From: Syntrophorhabdaceae bacterium
Lineage (GTDB): Bacteria; Desulfobacterota; Syntrophorhabdia; Syntrophorhabdales; Syntrophorhabdaceae
DNA: 64,000 nucleotides
Assembly (NCBI GenBank): GCA_963666485.2
Contig: CAXXUO010000002.1
Span: forward strand, 160,001 to 224,000
Direction: 5' to 3'
The notes below the pieces were generated by a model that worked only from the letters and a program-made list of their open reading frames with translations, ran no database searches and was not told the DNA's origin. Positions 49,507 to 60,038 of the stretch are shown one piece after another (within the stretch, counting starts at the first letter, position 1; each line of letters opens with the position of its first letter). The translations under genes and the position numbers were made by a program.

Positions 49507-49980
49507 TTACGGTGTTACGGTCACTGTGATGTGGTCGCTGTATGAACCTGTGGAGACATTCTGGCCTGCAGGTATCCGGCCGTAAAAGATCTCCGAGGCA
49601 GCCCAGGGCTCAGGCCTTCCCCCGGGACGTCTGAACTGGACGATGCTCGTGCCGCTTGTTCCGTCGCCCCAGATCGCGGCGCGGGCCGATGATGTGTAAA
49701 TGTTATAGTTGAGCACGTCCGACCCCGTCGCAAGCTTCATGCCGCGCGGGTTGAAGCGGCCCGTTGTTGCGCTGGCGCTTATCGTGACATTAGCCGTGCC
49801 CACATCCCGTGTGCAGTTCACATACACCCGGCCCGAATCGCTGTCAACCGGCGTCGATACAAACACGTCGTAGGACATGAACGCCACGTTTGTCACCGAC
49901 ATTGAGCAGGCGGCATCAGCAGATACGGTTACCAGCAGAAAAAAGAAACAGAGAAAATATGCCCTGACTAAAATATTCAT
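49507..49980 (-). CDS. Spore coat U/Csu-type pilin subunit
   Basis: Signal peptide; two Cys; LNYNIY...WGDGT, YGRIPAGQ..TGSYSD. Confidence 0.9.
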   Translation of the reverse strand: MNILVRAYFLCFFFLLVTVSADAACSMSVTNVAFMSYDVFVSTPVDSDSGRVYVNCTRDVGTANVTISASATTGRFNPRGMKLATGSDVLNYNIYTSSARAAIWGDGTSGTSIVQFRRPGGRPEPWAASEIFYGRIPAGQNVSTGSYSDHITVTVTP

Positions 49981-50032: not shown

Positions 50033-52480
50033 TCAGCGGCTGCTGCAGGTCACGGTCCCCAGGTCTGTGATCACGTCATCGCTTTTGGGTATAACGAGAT
50101 CGAACGAACAGGGCTTGTCCTTATACGTGAACGAAGCCGCGTATTTGCCCGGCTTGACATTCTCGAAATAGAACTCCCCGCCCTTGCCGGTAGGAAATAC
50201 GACCTCCTTGCCGTCTACCTGCATGGTCACTTCGAAAAACTCCGCCGGCTTTGTCACCCCGCCCTCCTTCACGTGCAGCATGCCCGTGGTCGCGATGAAT
50301 TTCACGACATCGAACCGGATGTGCGAACCGCTCCGCAAGGGAGGCGAGACGTACCTCGTAAGCTCGCCGATCGTATGGTCCATGGGTATGTCTTTTTGAT
50401 TGATCGCCACCTGGTTGTCCATGTACGAATTGAGGGTCGGCACGAAGACCTTGCCCGAAGCATCCGTCTTGCCGATCTGCGCGCCGTTCACTGTCACACC
50501 GACCCCTTTCACATCCCCTGTCTGCACGACGCCGAAACTGTCGGTTATGGGCCTCGCGAGCCCGAAGGTCCCGCCGGTATAGGCAATGGCCCCTGCGGCC
50601 GTGAGGCGCAGGGCATCAGTTTTCGTCGAACCCGTATAAATCCCTTTGTATTCGCCTGTATATATGCCGTATTTGCCATTGTACTGGAAGAACGGGTTCA
50701 ACGTCTCGGACGTGGTCCCGTTTATCTCCGACCTTTCGCCGCTCACCCGGTACCCGTAGCCTTCGCCGACAGGGACGTTCTTCGTATAGTCGATCCTCTG
50801 GACATTCTGGTCTTTATCCTGCGTATAACTGGCCGACAGTGTCGAGTTGTTCGCAAAGTAGTAATTGAAACTTATGAAGAACTGATTTGACGTTGTCTCG
50901 TTCCTCACATGCTTGAACGATGCAAGGACCACCGAATTCCTCGTGATATTTCTCGAATAGGACGCCATGTATTCCCTGGCGTCCTGGTCTATGTATTTTT
51001 TGATCTCGGAATAGTTCAGCGAGAGCGACCCGAATTCCCTGGTCCCGAAACCAATACCGGCCCCGAACTCGTACTTGGTCCCCACGGTGGTGGCCGGGAG
51101 CTCCTGCGGAGCCAGTACAGTATTGATCAATCCCGCTGATGGCGTGATGATGGACGATGTAGCGGATGCCGAGCCTTCATTGCCAACCATCATATAATAC
51201 CGCGAGTAGTGTTTGTAAAGCAGCCTCCAGTTCCACACCCTGCCCTGGAAACCGTAGTTCACGAGCCCCGCGTTGCCGTCGCCCACCGTGTCGTTGTGGC
51301 TTAAGGAATAGTTGAGGACCAGCGTGCCGAAACGCCACAGGGTCAATGCGACCAGCGGGCTGAAAAGATATGTTTTTCGCGTCCCTTCCGCATTGAACCC
51401 GACATTGAACGCATCGGTCACACCGTACTTGTGGTATGCAGAAAACGCCAGGTCTCCATAGTCATTGCTCTCTACCCCGTATTGCTGCCTCAGGAAACCG
51501 ACATTATAGCTGTATTCATGGAGCCCCTTACTTAAGAGGACATCGTTGAAATAATAAGGCAGGCGGTACCGCGTCTCTCTCCCGAAGGAATCCTTCATCA
51601 CGACCTCCACGAACCGCGCACCGCCATAATAGTTGATGTCGTTGAGGGAAAATTTCCCGGGGCCGATCTTCTGGGCCGCTATCTTCGTTCCGTCGAGATA
51701 GATGTCCGCTTCGGACGGCAATGTTGCCAGCCCCGTAAAATTGAACGTGGGACGCTTCACAAAATACGGGTCCATGCTGTAGACCTTTGAAAAGCTCAAA
51801 CCCCCGAGATTGAGGGTGCTCCCCAGGTCTCCGCCGACCGCATAGAAATCGCCTGCTATGAAACGCTGAAGCGTATTCCTCCTGTCATAGGTCATGCTGC
51901 TCATAAGCCTCGTGAAGGTCTCCTGCTCCTTCGTATCCTGGTAGGAGAAATTCGACAGGAAGAGGAGGTCTTTGAGGCGAACACCTACCTCGCTCGTCGC
52001 ATTGAAGCTCTGAAACGCGAATGAGTCACCCGAATTGTGCTCGAGGCCGTAATTAAAAAAGACACTTGAATCCCGCGGGTAATACACCTTCTGCTGCCTT
52101 TTGGCCGCAAAATCGAAGGACCTGGTCGCAAGCAGGTCCGGTTTCGCCGTGATGTTAAGAGTCAGCGTCTTTTCATCGAAGACGAACGTGACCCCTTCAA
52201 TGGATTTGAGGGACAGGAACGGCTCGCCCGCGACCTGCGTGATCTTGCCCGCCGGTTCGCTGAACCCCATGGACTTGAGGTCGTCCGTTTTGATGAGAAA
52301 ATCCCCGTCCCCGGTCATTTGGACAAAAATCTCACCCTTGGCTTCCTGGTTGAGGGTAATATTCATGACCAGGGTCTCGTCAGCCTGAACGCCTACGGGG
52401 AGGGACAGGATCAGGCAGAATAGAATGAAACGCAGTATGGAGGGGATATTTCGGATGTCTTTACTTGCACATCGATGCAT
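50033..52480 (-). CDS. Fimbrial outer-membrane usher (CsuD-like)
   Basis: FTRL, GDF, LGGLSF, PYFV..P, GL.EYSY..GFLR, ARPITDSF; 815 aa, beta-rich. Confidence 0.92.
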   Translation of the reverse strand: MHRCASKDIRNIPSILRFILFCLILSLPVGVQADETLVMNITLNQEAKGEIFVQMTGDGDFLIKTDDLKSMGFSEPAGKITQVAGEPFLSLKSIEGVTFVFDEKTLTLNITAKPDLLATRSFDFAAKRQQKVYYPRDSSVFFNYGLEHNSGDSFAFQSFNATSEVGVRLKDLLFLSNFSYQDTKEQETFTRLMSSMTYDRRNTLQRFIAGDFYAVGGDLGSTLNLGGLSFSKVYSMDPYFVKRPTFNFTGLATLPSEADIYLDGTKIAAQKIGPGKFSLNDINYYGGARFVEVVMKDSFGRETRYRLPYYFNDVLLSKGLHEYSYNVGFLRQQYGVESNDYGDLAFSAYHKYGVTDAFNVGFNAEGTRKTYLFSPLVALTLWRFGTLVLNYSLSHNDTVGDGNAGLVNYGFQGRVWNWRLLYKHYSRYYMMVGNEGSASATSSIITPSAGLINTVLAPQELPATTVGTKYEFGAGIGFGTREFGSLSLNYSEIKKYIDQDAREYMASYSRNITRNSVVLASFKHVRNETTSNQFFISFNYYFANNSTLSASYTQDKDQNVQRIDYTKNVPVGEGYGYRVSGERSEINGTTSETLNPFFQYNGKYGIYTGEYKGIYTGSTKTDALRLTAAGAIAYTGGTFGLARPITDSFGVVQTGDVKGVGVTVNGAQIGKTDASGKVFVPTLNSYMDNQVAINQKDIPMDHTIGELTRYVSPPLRSGSHIRFDVVKFIATTGMLHVKEGGVTKPAEFFEVTMQVDGKEVVFPTGKGGEFYFENVKPGKYAASFTYKDKPCSFDLVIPKSDDVITDLGTVTCSSR

Positions 52481-53216
52481 CGGTATTCAATTTGTGCTTC
52501 AAATTGACTTTGTCCGTAACAACCTCGACATCAAGGGTCGCGGTCTTTATGCACGCATCGCGCGCAAGGGGGGCCGAGTACGTTCTCGATACACCGCTCA
52601 GGAGATACCAGCCGCTCAGGTCTTTTGCAAAGGTCTGCCCGCCCTTTGAGTCCCGGCCAACCAGCTTCACTGTATTGATCACCAGGTGCACATTCCCCGT
52701 ATTGCTGACCGAAAGGGTGACGGTGCCCTTCGACAGGTCGCATCTCTCGACGGCCCCCCGCACCTCTTCCTTGACAGGCTGGGAAAAGATCGGGACGCCG
52801 AACCGGATGGCGACCGCTATGGCGGTCCCCTGTGCCTTCTTCGGTTCGGGAATCTCCTCGATGAATAAACGGTACGTTTTTTCTTTCGCCACGGCGGGTA
52901 TTTTTATGCCTGCCCGTATGACGCGTTCGCCCTTTGGGTCGACGGTCATGATCTTGGGAAAGAATATGAGGTCCTGCGTCTCCTCGTAGACATCCTTGCC
53001 CGCTGCGTCCTGGGTCCATTCAAACGCCTTCATCTGGCACTGCAGCTTCTCTTCCGCTTCATTGGTCACCGTAATGACCCCGGTCTTTGCCCGTGCATCG
53101 AGGACAAGGCGTATGGGCGTGACCCTGAACTCCCCACCCTGCGCACTGCCGGACAGGAGGACAAAAATGCAGATCAGGGACGCAAAAACAACGTAAAACA
53201 TAGTACGGATGGACAT
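52461..53216 (-). CDS. Fimbrial periplasmic chaperone (CsuC/PapD-like)
   Basis: VTPIR, W.Q, FFP, EKTYRLFIEEIP, FGVPIF, NTGNVH. Confidence 0.92.
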   Translation of the reverse strand: MSIRTMFYVVFASLICIFVLLSGSAQGGEFRVTPIRLVLDARAKTGVITVTNEAEEKLQCQMKAFEWTQDAAGKDVYEETQDLIFFPKIMTVDPKGERVIRAGIKIPAVAKEKTYRLFIEEIPEPKKAQGTAIAVAIRFGVPIFSQPVKEEVRGAVERCDLSKGTVTLSVSNTGNVHLVINTVKLVGRDSKGGQTFAKDLSGWYLLSGVSRTYSAPLARDACIKTATLDVEVVTDKVNLKHKLNTDASMCK

Positions 53217-53321
53217 TTGACACTATATATCACAGAAGCCGAGAATATTACAAGGATGATAAGGTTGTTACGACTGATTTCTTCAGACGGGTACTTTTGA
53301 GCGCCTGATACCCCCTGTCGC

Positions 53322-53454
53322 CGTCATTCCGGCTTGCCGGAATCCAGTGTCTTTCGTTTTTCTTGGGAAAAGGCTTCTTTCCGACACTCTGAAACTTCCA
53401 AATGTTCTTCTTTTAAAGACACTGGATTCCGCCGCAAAAGCCGGCGGAATGACG
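53322..53454. repeat. Paired REP-like palindromic element inside the pilus cluster
   Basis: CGTCATTCCGGCTTGCCGGAATCCAGTGTCTTT ... AAAGACACTGGATTCCGCCG..CGGCGGAATGACG. Confidence 0.85.
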
Positions 53455-53491
53455 AAGAGGCAGAGCCGCGATGCGGAGATAAACCGTTAGC

Positions 53492-54610
53492 CTATACGGG
53501 CCGTGCCGAGATGTTCAGAGGCCATGCGTACGTGCCGGGCTGTGCGTCCTTGGCGAGGACGAAGCGGTAGCTCAAGTCGATCGCGACGGGTACCCGTGCA
53601 AAGGGCTGCGTCACCCAGCCGGCTGACTCTATATAGACATCCCGTCCGCCTCCCTTGACGTGCACGCCCTTGATAAAGTTCATCGGACCGCCGAACCCTT
53701 CGAACACGATAAGGCACCCGGCGGGGTTGTTGTTGTTCACCTCGATGCGCGAGGCTGTGGGAACATCCACGTAACCGCGGGCGATATCGGCATTCGTTAT
53801 GACAAGCTCGGCCGACTGCTTTAAGACCTTCAGCTTGACGTAGGGAAGGACGTGGGCAGTGACCATGACCTTCGCCGATGAACCTTTTGTTTGAGGCTGG
53901 CCCGTGGAGTGCGCCTTTGTGGGGACAACGGCACCCGCAAGGGCAAGTGATGCCACAAGGGCAGCGGTGACCAGTTTCCGCTGAAGCGTGAGGACCCGGT
54001 CGATTTGCTGAGGTATTACGTAGCCGGCCTCTACCAGGATCTCGCCGATCTTCTTCTGCGACTGCCTCTGTTTTTGGAGGGCATCGTCAAGCTGGGCGCG
54101 GGTGACCTGGCCTGTGGCAACAAGGAGCTCACCGAGCCTGAGTTTTCCTTCTTCCGGCTTCTTTGAACCCTGCCGTCTCTGGAAATCCAGGATCGTCTTT
54201 AATTCCTTGCTGGTGAGAAGTCCATGCCGCAGCAATAACTCACCGATCTTCTCACCGGTCTCTTTCTGTTCGTTCAACAGGCTCTCGAGGTCGCGCCGCG
54301 AGATATATTTCGCCTCGAGGAGGAGTTCGCCGAGCATCCGCCTCGTGCCCGCGGCAAGTTTCAACGCATCCCGGGGGTTGGCGAGGTCCTTCTGGACCGC
54401 AAGGACCGCTTCAAGGTCCCGCGTATCGAGGAGGCCCATACCGATAAGGATCTCGCCCAGCTGCCTGTTTGTCTCCTTCTGCAGCTTGATCGAACGGTCG
54501 AGGTCCTTTTTCGTCACAAACCTCCCGTCTACCAGTATCCTTCCCAGGAGCCGTTTGACAAGCAGAGAACCCAGCCTGCCTTTCGCCTTCTTCACCTGAG
54601 CCGTTGCCAC
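53492..54610 (-). CDS. Three MshEN-like modules fused via an internal signal/TM segment to a pilin-like beta domain
   Basis: Six (R/K)LGxxLxxxGx6LxxxLxxQ-type half-motifs in aa 21-210; RKLVTAALVASLALAGAVVPTKAHS; C-terminal PGTYAWPLNIS. Confidence 0.85.
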   Translation of the reverse strand: MATAQVKKAKGRLGSLLVKRLLGRILVDGRFVTKKDLDRSIKLQKETNRQLGEILIGMGLLDTRDLEAVLAVQKDLANPRDALKLAAGTRRMLGELLLEAKYISRRDLESLLNEQKETGEKIGELLLRHGLLTSKELKTILDFQRRQGSKKPEEGKLRLGELLVATGQVTRAQLDDALQKQRQSQKKIGEILVEAGYVIPQQIDRVLTLQRKLVTAALVASLALAGAVVPTKAHSTGQPQTKGSSAKVMVTAHVLPYVKLKVLKQSAELVITNADIARGYVDVPTASRIEVNNNNPAGCLIVFEGFGGPMNFIKGVHVKGGGRDVYIESAGWVTQPFARVPVAIDLSYRFVLAKDAQPGTYAWPLNISARPV

Positions 54611-54639
54611 GCCCCTGTCTCCTTTAAGGTCTCGCCATG

Positions 54640-54683
54640 GAGCACCGCTGCCGTTATATTATTACGGCAGCCTTCGCGTGCTC
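54640..54683. other. Stem-loop between the pilin gene and the MshEN-fusion gene
   Basis: GAGCAC..GCTGCCGT-N9-ACGGCAGC..GTGCTC; no clear U tract. Confidence 0.5.
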
Positions 54684-54718
54684 TCAGGCATCTTCCCTGC
54701 ACCAGCCGTCACGTGCGA

Positions 54719-55186
54719 TCACGGGGTTATGCTCAGCACCACCGTGTCCGCATAGTTGGCTGCAGTCTTTCCCGTATAATCGGGGCCCAGGACCTGCCCG
54801 TCGATCGTGAGGGTCCTTGGTGTTGCCGGTCCCGCATTGGGATTCGCATCTTTCGTCAGCGTCAGGGTATACGGGATCAAGTCGCCGGAGCCCGCATCTT
54901 TCATGTTTCTCTTACCGCCCGCAAAGTTCACGCCGTTGTCGGCGGCGACCGCGTCTGTCGACGTGCCTTTTGTGCACCAGAACTGGGTCGTGGTGCTTCC
55001 GTTTACCGTCGTCCCGACTGACGGGTCAAGGGCCCCGAAATTCAACGTGCTGGTGGTCGAAACGAATTTACAGGTCCCCGTGACGCTTGCCTGCACCGTC
55101 AGCGTGTTGCTGCCCGCAGCCATGACCGTCCCGCACAACAATAGAACAAACATACCCGCGACGAACAATAAAGTGAGCGTTTTCAT
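54719..55186 (-). CDS. Spore coat U/Csu-type pilin subunit
   Basis: Signal peptide; LTVQASVTGTC, LNFG.LDP, FWCTKG, IPY, Y.DTV.LSITP. Confidence 0.92.
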   Translation of the reverse strand: MKTLTLLFVAGMFVLLLCGTVMAAGSNTLTVQASVTGTCKFVSTTSTLNFGALDPSVGTTVNGSTTTQFWCTKGTSTDAVAADNGVNFAGGKRNMKDAGSGDLIPYTLTLTKDANPNAGPATPRTLTIDGQVLGPDYTGKTAANYADTVVLSITP

Positions 55187-55198
55187 TTTCCTCTCCTT

Positions 55199-55353
55199 TG
55201 GTGCAATATCTCTATTGCACCATGTCTTAATATAGTCACACTTTGTATTACAGTCAACAGAATACTTTGAATCTCCCTCTGTTTCCTTGTATATGGTCTC
55301 GCGCACATTACCCTGTCCTGCCGATATTCTACCTAATTGCATTTCATAGTCAA
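55199..55353 (-). promoter_or_regulatory. Two candidate sigma-70 promoters and a palindrome upstream of the third pilin gene
   Basis: TTGACT-N17-TATATT (55257-55229); TTGACT-N16-TAGAAT (55353-55326); 9-bp inverted repeat TGGTGCAAT-N6-ATTGCACCA (55199-55222). Confidence 0.55.
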
Positions 55354-55385
55354 TATGTAGGTTTGTTTTACACATGCCATTTCCT

Positions 55386-55898
55386 TCACGGCGTGATCGT
55401 TATGACCACTGTATCTGCGAAATTCCCCGCACGTGCACCCGCGTAGTCAGTACCTTTCACCGTGCCGGTTATGGTCAGCGTCCGGTTGGTGTTCCTCGGC
55501 ACCGTACCGTTCGTGGGGCTCAGCGCGATGGTATAGGGCAAATATTCCGTCGTTACCGTCGCATGCCGCATCCTGGGGGCATTGGGGCCCGTCTCGTAAC
55601 GGCCGCTGTCATGGGTTATCGCGTACGCGGCGATGGGTGCGGTCCCTCCGCACCGGAATGTCGTCGTTGTATTGACGGTCTTGTCTGACGGGCTGCCCGG
55701 GTCAAGCGTACCGAAAGCGAGAGTGGAGGTGGCCGTATTGAATCGGCAGTTGCTGTTCGATACGACGGTGGCAGACACGGAAAGATTGATGCCGGCGGCC
55801 TGGGCCGTGCTTGCCATGACCAGGGAGCAGCATGCCGTGACCATTAGTATGATCACGGCTGCCTTTAAGTGCTCTCTTATGGCTGAGCTAGTTCTCAC
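55386..55898 (-). CDS. Spore coat U/Csu-type pilin subunit
   Basis: LSVSATV..NC, LAFGTLDP, FRC, LPY, ADTVVITITP. Confidence 0.9.
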   Translation of the reverse strand: MRTSSAIREHLKAAVIILMVTACCSLVMASTAQAAGINLSVSATVVSNSNCRFNTATSTLAFGTLDPGSPSDKTVNTTTTFRCGGTAPIAAYAITHDSGRYETGPNAPRMRHATVTTEYLPYTIALSPTNGTVPRNTNRTLTITGTVKGTDYAGARAGNFADTVVITITP

Positions 55899-55932: not shown

Positions 55933-56394
55933 TCACGGGGTTATGGTCAACGTCACCGTGTCTGTATAGCTGCCCGCGGTCTTGCTCGTATAATCGGTAC
56001 CCAGCACCTGTCCGGCTACCGTCAACGTCCTCGGCGATCCCGGGCCGGCGTTGGCGCTTCCGTCGGGAGTCAGCGTCAGGGTGTACGGGATGAGATCGGT
56101 CGCCGTTGCATGCTTCATATTTCTCTTTGTACCGTCCCAGTTGGAGCCCTGGCCGGCGCTCAGTGTTTCGGTCGTGCCCTTCGTACACCAGAACTGGGTC
56201 GTGGTGCTCCCGTTAACGTTTGTCCCCACTGAAGGGTCGAGGGCACCGAAATTCAAGGTGCTGGTGGCCGATGAGAACTTGCAGGTCCCTGTGACGCTTG
56301 CCTGCACTGTCAGTGTGTTCGTGCCCGAGGCCAGAACGGTGCCCGCTACAAGGATAAATCCAACTGCCAGTACTGCGATCAGGTTCTTCTTCAT
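55933..56394 (-). CDS. Spore coat U/Csu-type pilin subunit (close paralog of 54719-55186)
   Basis: GGAGG RBS; NTLTVQASVTGTCKF...FWCTKG...YTDTVTLTITP. Confidence 0.92.
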   Translation of the reverse strand: MKKNLIAVLAVGFILVAGTVLASGTNTLTVQASVTGTCKFSSATSTLNFGALDPSVGTNVNGSTTTQFWCTKGTTETLSAGQGSNWDGTKRNMKHATATDLIPYTLTLTPDGSANAGPGSPRTLTVAGQVLGTDYTSKTAGSYTDTVTLTITP

Positions 56395-56597
56395 TGTGTC
56401 CTCCCTTATTTCATCTGAGTATTTTTTACAATGCATTAACTTCACCTGACCTAAGCTTACGCACGAATTACCATGTAATCAAGATGTCATACCATTTTAC
56501 TATGTTAAATGATTTTACAGGGGATGGAAGGCAGCGCCGGCTCGAAAGGGGACCAATTCGGCGGCCGGCGCGTTGAAATGTATACGCTTAATGGAGG

Positions 56598-58061
56598 TTA
56601 CCCATTTGTTTTCTTTACGTTTTCTTCTTTTTCTCCCGGTGCCGGACCGGCTGTCCAGCCACCGCCCAACGCCTTGTAGAGGCGAACGAGGTCGCCGACG
56701 ACAGCCCCCCTGCTTGTCGCCAGGTTGTCCTTGACCGAGAGATATGTCCTCTGGGCATCGAGGACCGCCTGGAAATCGATGAGCCCCGATTTGTACTGTG
56801 ACAGGGCAAGGTTCGTGGAATCCGTCGCGGATGCCAGGGCGTCGTTCAGGGACTGCATCCTTTTCTGTTCGTTGACAAATGCGGTGATGGCGTTTTCCGC
56901 CTCCTCGAGGGCGAGGATGATCGTATTTTCGTACTGGAGGTACGCCTGTTCCTGGCGGGCGTTCTGGATCTCGATGTTGCTGCGGACCGCGCCGGCATTG
57001 AAGATATTCCAGGTGAAACGCGGGCCTATGTCAAAGAGCCTGTTGTTCCCGGTAAAAAGTCCGGCAAAGGTCGATGCGTCTATCCCGATGGAACCGTTGA
57101 GGGTCAGCTTCGGGTACAGGTCTGCCGTCGCGACGCCGATGCGCGCCGTCTGGGCGGCAAGCTGCCTTTCGGCGTTGCGCACGTCGGGCCTGCGGCGCAA
57201 TGTCTCGGCAGGGACGCCGAGTGCGATCTCGACAGGTACGGACGGCAGGCCGGCGGGTGCGGACACCTTCGGGTCGGCGAAGCCGGGATATTCGCCCATC
57301 AATGCCGAAAGCCTGTTCAAGGCCGCGGCAAGGCGGGTCTTGAGCGTCGGGATCGCCGCACGTGTCGCCTCCATATTGGTCTTTGCGCGATCGATGTCAA
57401 GCTGGGTGACGAGGCCGGCTTTTTGCCTGTAGACCGTCAGTTCGTATGTCTCGGTGAGGAGCTTGAGGTCGTCTTCCACGATCGCAAGCCTGTCCTGGAA
57501 CGTCCGCACATCCACGTAATTGAGGGCAACCTCTGCGGCCAGCGTCACATAGACCATGCCGTAATCTTCCTGCGAGGCCTCGTACGTTGCCCGTGCCGCT
57601 TCATTGGCCCTTCTTACGCCCCCAAACAGGTCGATCTCCCAGCCGGCATCGAGCCCCGCGGAGAAGATCTCCCGGGTCGTACCGGTCTCCCCGTTCTTCT
57701 CCGTCCGGGACAGCGAGTAGGCGCCCGAACCGTTGACCGCCGGGTAATACCGGGCCTCGGCCACGCCGCGGGCCGCACGGGCCTCACGTATACGCGCCTC
57801 GGCCTTCTTCAGGTCCTTGTTGTTCTTTATCGCTGTATCGATAAGATCGGCGAGGACGGGATCGTTGAGGGTCACCCACCATGATGCCAGGGTGTCCTGC
57901 GCTGCGCCCGGCGTCGTCGCGCCCTGCGCCGTCCGTGTATTCCATGCCCCGGGCGCCTTTATATCCGGCTTTACATAGTCGGGCCCCACCGTCGCACACC
58001 CCGCGAACATCAGCACCGCCACAAAAACCACAGCGTATTTGATCACATTTCTCAGTTCCAT
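56598..58061 (-). CDS. Efflux outer-membrane factor lipoprotein (NodT/OprM family)
   Basis: FAGC lipobox, VGPDY, WEIDLFG, RRPDVR.AE, LYKALGGGW. Confidence 0.95.
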   Translation of the reverse strand: MELRNVIKYAVVFVAVLMFAGCATVGPDYVKPDIKAPGAWNTRTAQGATTPGAAQDTLASWWVTLNDPVLADLIDTAIKNNKDLKKAEARIREARAARGVAEARYYPAVNGSGAYSLSRTEKNGETGTTREIFSAGLDAGWEIDLFGGVRRANEAARATYEASQEDYGMVYVTLAAEVALNYVDVRTFQDRLAIVEDDLKLLTETYELTVYRQKAGLVTQLDIDRAKTNMEATRAAIPTLKTRLAAALNRLSALMGEYPGFADPKVSAPAGLPSVPVEIALGVPAETLRRRPDVRNAERQLAAQTARIGVATADLYPKLTLNGSIGIDASTFAGLFTGNNRLFDIGPRFTWNIFNAGAVRSNIEIQNARQEQAYLQYENTIILALEEAENAITAFVNEQKRMQSLNDALASATDSTNLALSQYKSGLIDFQAVLDAQRTYLSVKDNLATSRGAVVGDLVRLYKALGGGWTAGPAPGEKEENVKKTNG

Positions 58062-58092
58062 TTTGGTTCTCCCCTTCATGATGACCGGATGC

Positions 58093-59301
58093 CTATTCAT
58101 GCCGTAACGCCTCGATCGGGTCTAAACTGGCGGCCTTGTGTGCGGGCACATACCCGAAGGCAAGCCCGACACCCGCGGAAAACAGAAAAGCGATGATGAT
58201 GATGCCTATGTTGAGGACCAACGGCACACCAAGGATGCGGACAAGGACCGCGGACGCGGCAAGGGCGAGTGCTATCCCGATGAGCCCCCCGAATGCCGAC
58301 AGCACCATGGCCTCGACAAGGAACTGCAGGAGCACCTCGCGCTCGAGGGCTCCTATCGCAAGCCGCGTCCCGATCTCGCGCGTCCGTTCTGTCACCGAGA
58401 CAAGCATGATGTTCATAATTCCTATCCCGCCCACGAGCAGGCTCACGGCGGCCACTGCTCCAAGCAGCGCGGTCAGGAGCTTTGTCGTGTCAAGCATCGT
58501 GCTCGCCAGCTCCTTCATGTCCCTGATCTGGAAATCGTTCGGTTTGAGGGTCGATACGCGCCGGCGCTCCCTGAGCAGCGCCTCGATATCCTGCTGTGCC
58601 TTTTCCGTGGACACGCCCTCTTCCACGGAGACCTGTATGAGGCCGATCTTGTCGTTGCCCGATATGCGCCGCTGAAAGGCGCGAAGCGGCATAACGACCG
58701 CGTCATCCTGGTCCCGGCCCATCGTCGACTGACCTTTGGACGCGAGAACACCCAGCACCTCGAACGAAATGCCCTTGACGCGAATTCTCTGGCCGATGGC
58801 CTCCTGGTCCCCGAAAAGCTCTTTTTTGACCGTCGCGCCGAGAATGCACACGGCCGTTCCCGAACGCAGCTCGCCGTCAGAAAATTCCCTGCCTTTATCT
58901 ATCGCCCAATCCTTCGCCTTGAAGAAATTGTTGTCTACGCCGTTCACCGACGTGCTCCAGTTCTTTGAACCGAAAACGACCATCGCTGTCGACGACGCCG
59001 TCGGGGCCACCGCTGCCAGCGATCCCACGTCCCGGCTGATCGCCCTCGCGTCGTCTATCTCGAACGATTTGGCGTCCGAGTGGCCGCCGCCCCCGCTGCG
59101 CATCTGGCCGGGCGTCACCATGAGCAGGTTGCTCCCGAGCTTCGCGATGTCCTCGGTCACCTTCGCCGTTGCCCCGCTGCCAACGGTGACCAATGTAATG
59201 ACCGCCGCGACGCCGATGACGATGCCGAGTATCGTGAGAAATGAACGCATCTTGTTGCGCCGTATTGCCCGTAAGGCCAGGATGAATGCATTGAGGATCA
59301 T
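58093..59301 (-). CDS. MacB-like ABC transporter permease
   Basis: RSFLTILGIVIGV; GGIGIMNIMLVSVTERTREIG; LDPIEALR. Confidence 0.95.
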   Translation of the reverse strand: MILNAFILALRAIRRNKMRSFLTILGIVIGVAAVITLVTVGSGATAKVTEDIAKLGSNLLMVTPGQMRSGGGGHSDAKSFEIDDARAISRDVGSLAAVAPTASSTAMVVFGSKNWSTSVNGVDNNFFKAKDWAIDKGREFSDGELRSGTAVCILGATVKKELFGDQEAIGQRIRVKGISFEVLGVLASKGQSTMGRDQDDAVVMPLRAFQRRISGNDKIGLIQVSVEEGVSTEKAQQDIEALLRERRRVSTLKPNDFQIRDMKELASTMLDTTKLLTALLGAVAAVSLLVGGIGIMNIMLVSVTERTREIGTRLAIGALEREVLLQFLVEAMVLSAFGGLIGIALALAASAVLVRILGVPLVLNIGIIIIAFLFSAGVGLAFGYVPAHKAASLDPIEALRHE

Positions 59302-60038
59302 TGTACCACCTCGCTTTGCCGGCTGTCCGACGCTATGAGGCCGTCGCGGAAACGCACCGTGCGGCTCGCGTATTCGGCCATGTCCGGCTCATGTGTCACC
59401 ATCATGATCGTGATCCCGCGCTCCCTGTTGAGCGACGTTAAAAGTTCCATGATCTCCACGCTCCGGATCGAGTCGAGATTCCCCGTCGGCTCGTCGGCAA
59501 GAAGCACGGTCGGCGTTGTTGCGATCGCCCGCGCTATGGCGACCCTCTGCTGCTGGCCGCCGGAAAGCTCCGCGGGCGAGTGATGTTCCCAACCCGAAAG
59601 CCCGACGGCGTCGAGCGCCTCGTGTGCTATCCTGCTCCTTTCGGTGTGATGTATGCCCCTGTATACGAGGGGAAGCTCCACGTTCTCGAGGGCCGAGGTA
59701 CGGCTCAGGAGGTTGAATCCCTGGAAGACGAACCCGAGGTAATGGCGCCTGAGCAGGGCCCTCTGGTTCCGCGAAAGATTCCCGATATCGATACCCCGAA
59801 AAAGGTACTGCCCGCTCGTCGGCGTATCGAGACAGCCAAGGAGGTTCATACAGGTGGATTTCCCGCATCCGCTCGGGCCCATGACCGCGACGAAATCACT
59901 TTCATAGATCGTGAGGTCGATGCCCTTCAAGGCCTGGAGCGCGGCCTGGCCTTTGCCGTAGACCTTGGTTATCCCTTTGAGCTCGATAAGCGGCTGATCG
60001 TTGTCCCGTGTCATTTCATTCACCTGGGCGTTCATCAC
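59298..60038 (-). CDS. MacB/LolD-like ABC ATP-binding protein
   Basis: GPSGCGKST, LSGGQQQR, ADEPTGNLD, VTH. Confidence 0.95.
   Translation of the reverse strand: MMNAQVNEMTRDNDQPLIELKGITKVYGKGQAALQALKGIDLTIYESDFVAVMGPSGCGKSTCMNLLGCLDTPTSGQYLFRGIDIGNLSRNQRALLRRHYLGFVFQGFNLLSRTSALENVELPLVYRGIHHTERSRIAHEALDAVGLSGWEHHSPAELSGGQQQRVAIARAIATTPTVLLADEPTGNLDSIRSVEIMELLTSLNRERGITIMMVTHEPDMAEYASRTVRFRDGLIASDSRQSEVVQ

Follow-up and report, generated by a model that had tools for sequence, protein, structure and literature searches.

Can a receptor domain for cyclic diguanosine monophosphate (c-di-GMP) stand ahead of the export signal of a pilus subunit and control whether that subunit leaves the cytoplasm? 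The question is raised by a gene at positions 53492..54610 of the window (the whole stretch of DNA analysed, 64,000 nucleotides from contig CAXXUO010000002.1 of a Syntrophorhabdaceae bacterium), which lies inside a cluster of chaperone-usher pilus genes and encodes a protein with an MshEN array, a signal-peptide-like segment and a beta-rich domain. Our favoured answer, to which we give about an even chance, is that the product is a pre-protein composed of the MshEN array, a Sec-type segment and an exported pilus subunit, the export, cleavage or release of which is set post-translationally by c-di-GMP. The open reading frame (ORF) is on the minus strand and comprises 372 aa from a GTG start, with AGGAGA about 8 nt upstream of it; translation of the plus strand over 53492..54610 is full of stops, with no open frame. 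The parts of the gene are as follows.

53492..54610, minus strand: whole gene, 372 aa; three MshEN_N modules, then a signal-peptide-like segment, then a beta-sandwich domain
54392..54553, minus strand: MshEN_N module 1, aa 20-73, degenerate
54179..54340, minus strand: MshEN_N module 2, aa 91-144
53981..54139, minus strand: MshEN_N module 3, aa 158-210, nearest to canonical
53906..53980, minus strand: signal-peptide-like segment, aa 211-235, made of RK, LVTAALVASLALAGAVV and PTKAHS; candidate signal peptidase I site after S235
53495..53905, minus strand: predicted periplasmic domain, aa 236-372, a disordered linker with the donor-strand-like stretch AKVMVTAHV and then a 10-strand beta-sandwich; predicted chaperone client

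The preliminary description of this DNA had treated the ORF as one intact gene rather than two, and this is borne out by Logan contigs of runs X1 and X2, which span 53428-54800 with zero differences (the two represent one sample, probably the source sample, and are not independent), as well as by abundant full-length homologs. Indeed, the best 120 homologs listed are 338-407 aa long with 92-100% query coverage, on which grounds a fusion artefact or two separate genes was rejected; the protein is a member of a conserved family. As had also been proposed, Pfam and NCBIfam scans found no ATPase domain in the 372-aa protein, and the Pfam scan found no glycosyltransferase, PilZ, GGDEF/EAL or HAMP domain in it. 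A second triple-MshEN protein was not found in the same genome.

The N-terminal array

Three stretches of the N-terminal region (aa 1-210) are matched by NF053729, the NCBIfam model named 'cyclic di-GMP-binding domain, MshE-related'; the score is 143.4 bits, where the cut-off is 38, and the E-value 1.2e-42. Six half-motifs start at aa 21/50, 92/121 and 158/187 with a spacing of exactly 24+5+24, and the strict consensus of Wang 2016 (PMC5013675) likewise consists of two 24-residue halves with a 5-residue spacer, each half reading RLGxx(L/V/I)(L/V/I)xxG(L/V/I)(L/V/I)xxxxLxxxLxxQ. An AlphaFold2 model (32-row alignment, mean predicted local distance difference test (pLDDT) 81.5) displays three four-helix units, in which 10-residue blocks have a pLDDT of about 74-92. 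Among solved structures the best match is Thermus thermophilus PilF (6f8l, E 5.3e-13), of which the three GSPII domains are colinear with the three modules, while Vibrio cholerae MshE (5htl) matches at E 2.4e-5. From these sequence matches and the model, the region is a triple MshEN_N-type array, that is the c-di-GMP receptor domain type of MshE, PilB and PilF, with ligand binding itself being predicted.

The modules differ in how far they depart from the consensus, in agreement with the earlier view that the third is near canonical and the first two more degenerate. Module 1 has L or Q at position 1, and R at position 10 of its half I; half II of module 2 satisfies the relaxed Wang 2016 motif; half I of module 3 departs from the motif solely at position 11 (Q). 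A core pattern devised in this analysis fits five of the six halves, and 5000 shufflings of aa 1-210 produced 0 matches to the relaxed motif. Pfam hits to FumaraseC_C, DUF4388, DUF2949 and NifT were rejected as cross-matches, since they lie on MshEN helices and recur on every cassette protein; the models NF008411 (NfrB) and TIGR03029 (EpsG) cross-match the modules as well.

Some of these features weigh against c-di-GMP control, as do further results given below at the places where they arise. The strict motif is matched by 0/6 halves and the relaxed one by 2/6 (aa 121 and aa 187), the Arg/Lys at position 1 of half I is absent from modules 1 and 2, and tandem MshEN arrays with non-binding copies are documented (PMC5013675, section 12 and Supplementary Table 6). 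The modules might hence be degenerate and non-binding, with the N-terminal region serving as a structural cytoplasmic pro-domain for partner binding or export delay, a reading that the absence of the canonical Arg in 3/6 halves also favours. We regard it as quite improbable, given that G3, h17, h21 and Q24 are retained in 6/6 halves and are invariant or near-invariant across the family, that module 3 is off the relaxed motif at one position of half I, that the NF053729 score is well over its cut-off, and that PilZ genes adjoin the gene in two relatives (L001 and L002).

The junction segment

Directly behind the array are found R211-K212, a 17-residue hydrophobic stretch (LVTAALVASLALAGAVV), P230 and then A233-H234-S235, and the best 19-mer, at aa 213, has a Kyte-Doolittle mean of 2.03. 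This is the anatomy of a signal peptide, with a basic n-region, an h-region and small residues at -3 and -1, in a location that is not N-terminal, the segment starting at residue 211. A sequence pattern anchored 102 of the best 120 homologs, and the putative cleavage motif A-x-[AS] is present in 88 of these 102, compared to about 10% expected by chance from the tripeptide rate elsewhere in the same proteins; the homologs are related and do not represent independent events. Counted from where the hydrophobic stretch begins, the -1 residue falls exactly 23 residues further on in 56 of these homologs (AHA 33, AHS 8, AYA 7 and AYS 5 among them), and the linker around the site is variable in the family. 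Taken with the module-free relatives and the lipobox variants described below, the anatomy and the conserved A-x-[AS] bear out the earlier placing of a signal-peptide-like segment at residue 211. That this internal segment behaves as a genuine Sec signal peptide is supported by comparison of sequences, cleavage itself being predicted.

The segment is closely joined to the array. In the AlphaFold2 model an unbroken helix (aa 200-225) runs from module 3 into the hydrophobic stretch, with a pLDDT of about 90 up to residue 220, and the 25 residues at aa 227-251 come out as disordered. I203, L207 and Q210 in the last helix of module 3 are the equivalents of the c-di-GMP-contacting L...L..Q, and just two basic residues (R211-K212) separate Q210 from the hydrophobic stretch. 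Within the stretch, 90% or more of the family sequences conserve each of L213, T215, A216, A217, L218, A220 and L222. Furthermore, the hydrophobic stretch after the array is similar in proteins with quite different cargo, while module-free relatives of the C-terminal domain carry unrelated signal peptides; hence the hydrophobic helix seems to be functionally part of the MshEN cassette. One cluster representative of 343 aa (P0191) is missing the hydrophobic segment between array and C-terminal domain, its best 13-mer hydropathy being 0.85; it may have arisen by deletion, come from a pseudogene or represent a cytoplasmic form.

These same properties introduce the main rival to regulated cleavage and release. 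A hydrophobic stretch of 17 residues is long for a signal peptide and this one is unusually conserved, also across cargo classes, which counts against cleavage and would suit a permanent, functional membrane helix. The segment would then be an uncleaved signal anchor of type II, signalling inside-out in the manner of LapD, with c-di-GMP altering the helix or the oligomeric state; the rigid helix that continues from the binding site into the membrane segment and the disordered 25-residue tether at aa 227-251 are consistent with such a design. We consider this possible, on the unlikely side. Its output would be a tethered periplasmic domain that captures or releases the chaperone as a decoy subunit, or another partner, for which the predicted chaperone binding would be needed too, and we hold this part to be possible with the same reserve. 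An A-x-A conserved at a fixed distance (A-x-[AS] in 88/102) would be without a role in a permanent anchor.

The cassette, its cargo and module-free relatives

A search with aa 1-235 against 1.84 billion cluster representatives returned 88 proteins at E <= 1e-30, and the 86 top representatives were inspected by a hydropathy count. A hydrophobic 13-mer directly follows the Q210-equivalent in 81 of the 86, the C-terminal domain is carried by 43, and a lipobox Cys is found in 9, usually followed by a Gly-rich linker. Pfam domains on 29 representatives without the C-terminal domain were those of Paired_CXXCH multihaem cytochromes, fn3/Big_7/DUF4082 surface proteins, Beta_helix, Big_5, Peptidase_C39_2, CAP and Sel1. 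The genome loci L011-L020 repeat this pattern with ORFs of 653-1671 aa, adhesins of 1000-1671 aa being among the cargo; a lipobox with a Gly/Ser linker stands behind the cassette in L011, L012, L014, L015 and L017, and L020 has three CxxCH motifs. Given these lipobox and c-type haem motifs behind the segment, the part behind it would be exported and, in the case of the lipobox, also processed.

The C-terminal domain, for its part, occurs with and without the cassette. The family has no Pfam model and is called 'hypothetical protein' wherever a source names it. Scanning metagenome contigs with the domain alignment gave 80 loci, of which 65 have an ORF closed by an upstream in-frame stop; three modules are found in 27 of these closed ORFs, two in 8, one in 17 and none in 13, so that the survey of fused versus stand-alone homologs suggested by the preliminary description finds both. 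Module-free proteins with ordinary N-terminal signal peptides are L145, L150, L157, L162, P0130 and P0132. L131 and L134 resemble degenerate remnants and were left out of the stand-alone set, and P0137, P0138 and P0146 were rejected from it as truncated gene calls, as they retain the tail of an MshEN half-motif.

Since the same cassette precedes unrelated cargo and the C-terminal domain occurs with 0-3 modules, post-translational c-di-GMP control of export, cleavage or tethering, which the preliminary description had put forward, becomes more plausible as judged from these sequence comparisons. A broader reading, which we hold tentatively and at somewhat less than an even chance, is that MshEN_N arrays (1-3 copies), a continuous helix and a Sec or lipoprotein signal make up a portable 'c-di-GMP-gated signal peptide' that would act post-translationally, cargo by cargo. 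Its cargos would include, besides a pilus subunit, adhesins of the fn3/Big type, multihaem cytochromes and lipoprotein peptidases, and for the chaperone-usher pilus it would amount to a direct c-di-GMP checkpoint, which is conceivable though again short of an even chance.

The cargo also bears on the permanent anchor. Cassette variants with a lipobox Cys imply processing, the module-free forms carry ordinary, cleavable-looking signal peptides, and release, rather than tethering to the inner membrane, is usual for cargo such as multihaem cytochromes and adhesins of 1000-1671 aa, all of which argues against such an anchor.

A separate observation is that triple-MshEN cassettes stand ahead of small multihaem c-type cytochromes in Desulfuromonadales-like records (L020:3423-4631, P0187, P0208 and P0234). 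Such cytochrome cassettes may link c-di-GMP, or cyclic GMP-AMP (cGAMP), to the export of electron-transfer proteins; cGAMP is bound weakly by MshEN according to PMC5013675.

The C-terminal domain

The C-terminal 137 aa were modelled by AlphaFold2 (58-row alignment) as an all-beta sandwich with a pLDDT of 91.7, about 22 N-terminal residues lying outside the fold. This extension contains a conserved SAKxxVTAxV stretch and is similar to the one with which the neighbouring pilins begin (TLTVQASVTGTC). The best Foldseek matches were CfaB, an archaeal bundling pilus and cannulae at E 2-4e-3 (best 2.2e-3). With VIA-align against 48,161 chains the top Z was 7.7, for ex vivo Pyrodictium cannulae, and re-alignment of the Foldseek top chains gave a Z of 8.6 for CanA (root-mean-square deviation (rmsd) 3.0, 105 aligned) and of 8.4 and 7.8 for the next cannula/Hyper2 chains, values to be read with the aligner's own warning that a Z under or near 8 is common and can mirror a mere common arrangement. 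Pilins matched on the same scale, FimG at 6.8 (rmsd 3.5, 115 aligned), FimA at 6.4-6.6, PapA at 6.1 and CfaB at 5.9. Donor-strand fibre subunits make up 30 of the 50 listed structural rows, and carbohydrate-binding modules score similar Z. The nearest named clusters in the ESM Atlas were SCPU (0.91) and DUF4402 (0.90), which are leads only. On the model, the domain may be weakly pilin-like in fold.

Its assignment to the pilus has results against it as well. Neither SCPU (PF05229) nor another Pfam family matched the domain at E <= 0.1; hhalign of the domain against SCPU pilins reached 32.9% probability, which is not significant, and covered the signal peptide and extension only; Foldseek returned nothing from the PDB at E <= 1e-3; and the fold matches are weak, with Z at most 8.6. 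Of the beta-rich, pilin-like domain of the preliminary description, the beta-sandwich and the predicted docking to the chaperone (below) stand, while the fold scores are weak and membership of SCPU by sequence is not seen.

The best structural matches, CanA and Hyper2 (Z 8.6, 8.4 and 7.8), are chaperone-independent, and they raise the alternative that the domain is not a chaperone-usher subunit but assembles by itself as a CanA/TasA-type donor-strand fibre or matrix protein, co-regulated with the pili and exported under control of the cassette. We take this to be improbable; a Z near or under 8 can mean a mere common arrangement, and the docking and gene order that follow speak for a chaperone-usher subunit.

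The pilus cluster and docking to its chaperone

The gene was said to lie between three pilin genes and the chaperone and usher genes, and the cluster order, taken from Pfam matches and the ORF list, bears this out. On the minus strand the order is SCPU pilin, pilin-like gene, SCPU pilin, MshEN fusion gene, PapD_N chaperone, usher and a 157-aa SCPU gene.

55933..56445, minus strand: SCPU pilin with N-terminal extension, first gene of the cluster
55386..55898, minus strand: pilin-like protein that aligns with SCPU pilins, without Pfam match
54719..55186, minus strand: SCPU pilin, likely start at an internal Met (MKTLTLL) at 55186; the listed ORF extends to 55375
52461..53216, minus strand: PapD_N-type periplasmic chaperone
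50033..52480, minus strand: outer-membrane usher
49507..49980, minus strand: 157-aa SCPU subunit, candidate for the tip, lacking an N-terminal extension ahead of the conserved Cys

For the third pilin, the mechanical ORF (54719-55375) has 218 aa, but its signal peptide begins at the internal Met, and the 63 codons ahead of that Met are probably untranslated.

Complexes of the mature chaperone (aa 28-251, 11-row alignment) with the C-terminal domain were predicted in three runs alongside three controls. The interaction prediction score from aligned errors (ipSAE) was 0.74, 0.70 and 0.70 (median 0.70), against 0.00 for the best of the 3 controls; that mark is reached by 116/157 solved complexes and 2/215 mismatched pairs, counts that are only rough here, as own alignments were used. 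The runs share at least 61% of their contacts, with a partner pLDDT of 78 or more. On the chaperone, R31 of the A1 strand and I137-R138-F139-G140 of the G1 strand contact the first strand (K259, K261, V262), the last strand and the C-terminus (366-372) of the domain, and the conserved chaperone motif D199-W203 contacts a conserved loop of the domain (325-334). The predicted complex, which the preliminary description had named as a check, is thus docked in donor-strand geometry, and binding of the C-terminal domain to the operon chaperone in that geometry is supported by the model, with canonical A1/G1 and C-terminus contacts that argue against a self-assembling fibre. The complex score may, to its discredit, echo solved chaperone-subunit complexes held in the memory of the model.

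In chaperone-usher pili the first (tip) subunit alone is without a donor strand. The mature part of the 157-aa SCPU protein encoded after the usher begins at the conserved Cys (A|ACSMSV), and in the three pilins encoded upstream that Cys is preceded by about 15 residues; the 157-aa protein therefore looks like the tip, because it is without an N-terminal donor-strand extension. The C-terminal domain of the fusion protein has such an extension, so it looks like a non-tip subunit, that is an adaptor, shaft component or terminator, and we infer that it is one. The absence of a two-domain CsuE-like adhesin from the pilus cluster, noted earlier, was found again, and the nucleator role that had been derived from it is not supported: a tip-like SCPU subunit follows the usher, and the domain keeps its SAKxxVTAxV extension as non-tip subunits do.

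Genomic context

Eight genomes of a 401-genome phylum sample carry the gene, the genome of this window included. In the other seven, SCPU pilins adjoin the gene in 7/7 and chaperone and usher genes are present as well in 6/7 within the fetched stretch, and this recurring position between pilins and chaperone is a further point against the self-assembling fibre. Chaperone-usher genes are nearby in 8 of 12 full-length loci on genome contigs (L004 being on the same contig as L097) and in 28 of the 36 metagenome loci whose flank measures 3 kb or more, where they accompany 7/7 loci with no module, 9/11 with one, 4/4 with two and 8/14 with three.

No chaperone-usher genes are seen at the remaining 8 of these 36 loci, and usher (PF00577), chaperone and SCPU (PF05229) were not matched in four carrier genomes (those of L001, L002, L005 and L006, metagenome-assembled genomes of which the completeness is not given). 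Both results tell against a dedicated pilus subunit and are what a self-assembling fibre would lead one to see. The control genome G082 was matched in the SCPU search, and the contig of L006 stops where relatives run on into pilin genes. The genome of L011, one of the loci with other cargo, gave no match to usher or chaperone.

Two of the loci without chaperone-usher genes have PilZ-domain neighbours, L001:9526-10248 (REC-PilZ) and L002:1741-2037, so that a second c-di-GMP receptor adjoins the family member there; L002 also has exopolysaccharide glycosyltransferase genes. In the Smithella-type locus L009 (3321-5572) a sigma-54 enhancer-binding protein and a Fur-family regulator are encoded between the family member and the SCPU pilins; the same sigma-54 protein precedes the contig end in L006 (9185-10783), and L008 and L022, also Smithella-type, have a comparable gap. 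This hints at sigma-54 control of these pilus clusters.

In the window itself, an Rfam scan matched zero families, hence no c-di-GMP riboswitch was detected, and promoter and terminator scans were at chance level (7 promoter-like sites vs 4.4±1.9, 9 terminator-like vs 7.8±3.4). Directly upstream of the pilus cluster, 56598-60038 on the minus strand encodes a 500-aa outer-membrane efflux protein, a 402-aa FtsX/MacB-like permease and a 246-aa ATP-binding cassette (ABC) ATPase, as assigned by reading the translations. Between the MshEN fusion gene and the chaperone gene lies a convergent pair of hairpin repeats of about 35 nt (53321-53354 and 53413-53454), each ending CGGAATCCAGTGTCTTT. This 17-mer has 127 copies in the same genome at <=1 mismatch (62 forward, 65 reverse), compared to 0 for a reversed control pattern, and contig depth is 190-260 at the repeats vs 2.9 for the fusion gene. 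The repeat is also present in a wastewater metagenome run; run X4 has the repeat only. It looks like a dispersed element of the repetitive extragenic palindromic (REP) or bacterial interspersed mosaic element (BIME) kind, or like a miniature inverted-repeat transposable element (MITE).

Discussion

The protein shares with the ATPases MshE, PilB and PilF the 53-residue module of two half-motifs, the four-helix units and, with PilF, the tandem triple arrangement. It differs from them in being a fusion protein without a T2SSE ATPase and without MshEN_C, the array leading instead into a signal-like helix and a predicted exported domain. NfrB (GT2-MshEN), BcsA, Alg44, PelD and LapD are inner-membrane c-di-GMP receptors that act post-translationally on export; in them, as proposed for the present protein, a cytoplasmic c-di-GMP receptor is physically coupled to a process across the inner membrane. 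These five control polysaccharide synthases or a periplasmic protease, whereas here the receptor sits in the cargo's own pre-sequence. In the case of LapD, only the logic could be common, since Pfam and NCBIfam reveal no HAMP, degenerate GGDEF-EAL or LapG-binding periplasmic domain here. The extended signal peptide region (ESPR) of autotransporters consists of about 25 extra residues N-terminal to the signal peptide, without a ligand-binding fold, and is thought to modulate targeting; it is similar in placing extra N-terminal sequence ahead of an otherwise normal signal peptide, but here that sequence is 210 residues long and forms three receptor modules.

With the chaperone-usher subunits FimG, FimF, PapH, CsuA and CsuB the part predicted to be exported has in common its size, modelled beta-sandwich, alternating-hydrophobic N-terminal extension, predicted donor-strand complementation and, in the window, operon position. 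It is unlike minor subunits of this pathway in its lack of SCPU sequence membership, its weak fold scores, the 210-aa cytoplasmic pre-sequence and its presence in genomes without a detectable usher. CanA cannulae, Hyper2 tubes and TasA-like fibres are its best structural matches and are donor-strand fibres with an N-terminal strand as well, but they are archaeal or Gram-positive, do without chaperone and usher, and share about 5-9% identity with it, in a match near the aligner's stated background.

Searches of full-text literature lacking most subscription journals found no description of MshEN ahead of a signal peptide or in a chaperone-usher operon. The MshEN architecture list (PMC5013675, Supplementary Table 4) is without this architecture, its nearest entry being 'MshEN_N - Peptidase_M23', and passages of PMC12943098 and PMC8844925 describe none. 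Control of chaperone-usher pili by c-di-GMP is described at the expression level (passages of PMC10721868). What we see is a known receptor domain with a new coupling to export signals, and the coupling is apparently portable.

Under the favoured reading, the hydrophobic segment would insert N-in/C-out, signal peptidase would free the C-terminal domain, and the freed domain would become a minor, non-tip subunit by way of the chaperone-usher pathway of SCPU (archaic, Csu-like) type. Occupancy of the array by c-di-GMP would decide, post-translationally, whether or when insertion, cleavage or release occurs, and pilus assembly would thereby be tied to c-di-GMP without transcription. Ligand binding could shift the exposure, depth or pairing of the helix, and hence targeting, cleavage or release, with either sign possible; such a response of the helix is plausible because the last ligand-contacting Gln (Q210) is two residues from the membrane segment. 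Given that the same MshEN and hydrophobic cassette stands ahead of other exported cargo, the mechanism would amount to a 'regulated signal peptide' of general use. On the other side of the balance, we are aware of no earlier case in which Sec export is gated by a cytoplasmic domain that precedes the signal peptide.

If this reading is true, a receptor in the subunit's own pre-sequence would be a post-translational checkpoint for chaperone-usher pili. Moreover, the cassette ahead of at least seven unrelated exported cargo classes points to a general and easily testable link between a second messenger and the Sec export of individual proteins. It would, if true, provide a means, not described before, by which a second messenger decides whether a surface or matrix protein leaves the cytoplasmic membrane, and it would help explain the many MshEN proteins without known output in Desulfobacterota-like and Nitrospirota genomes.

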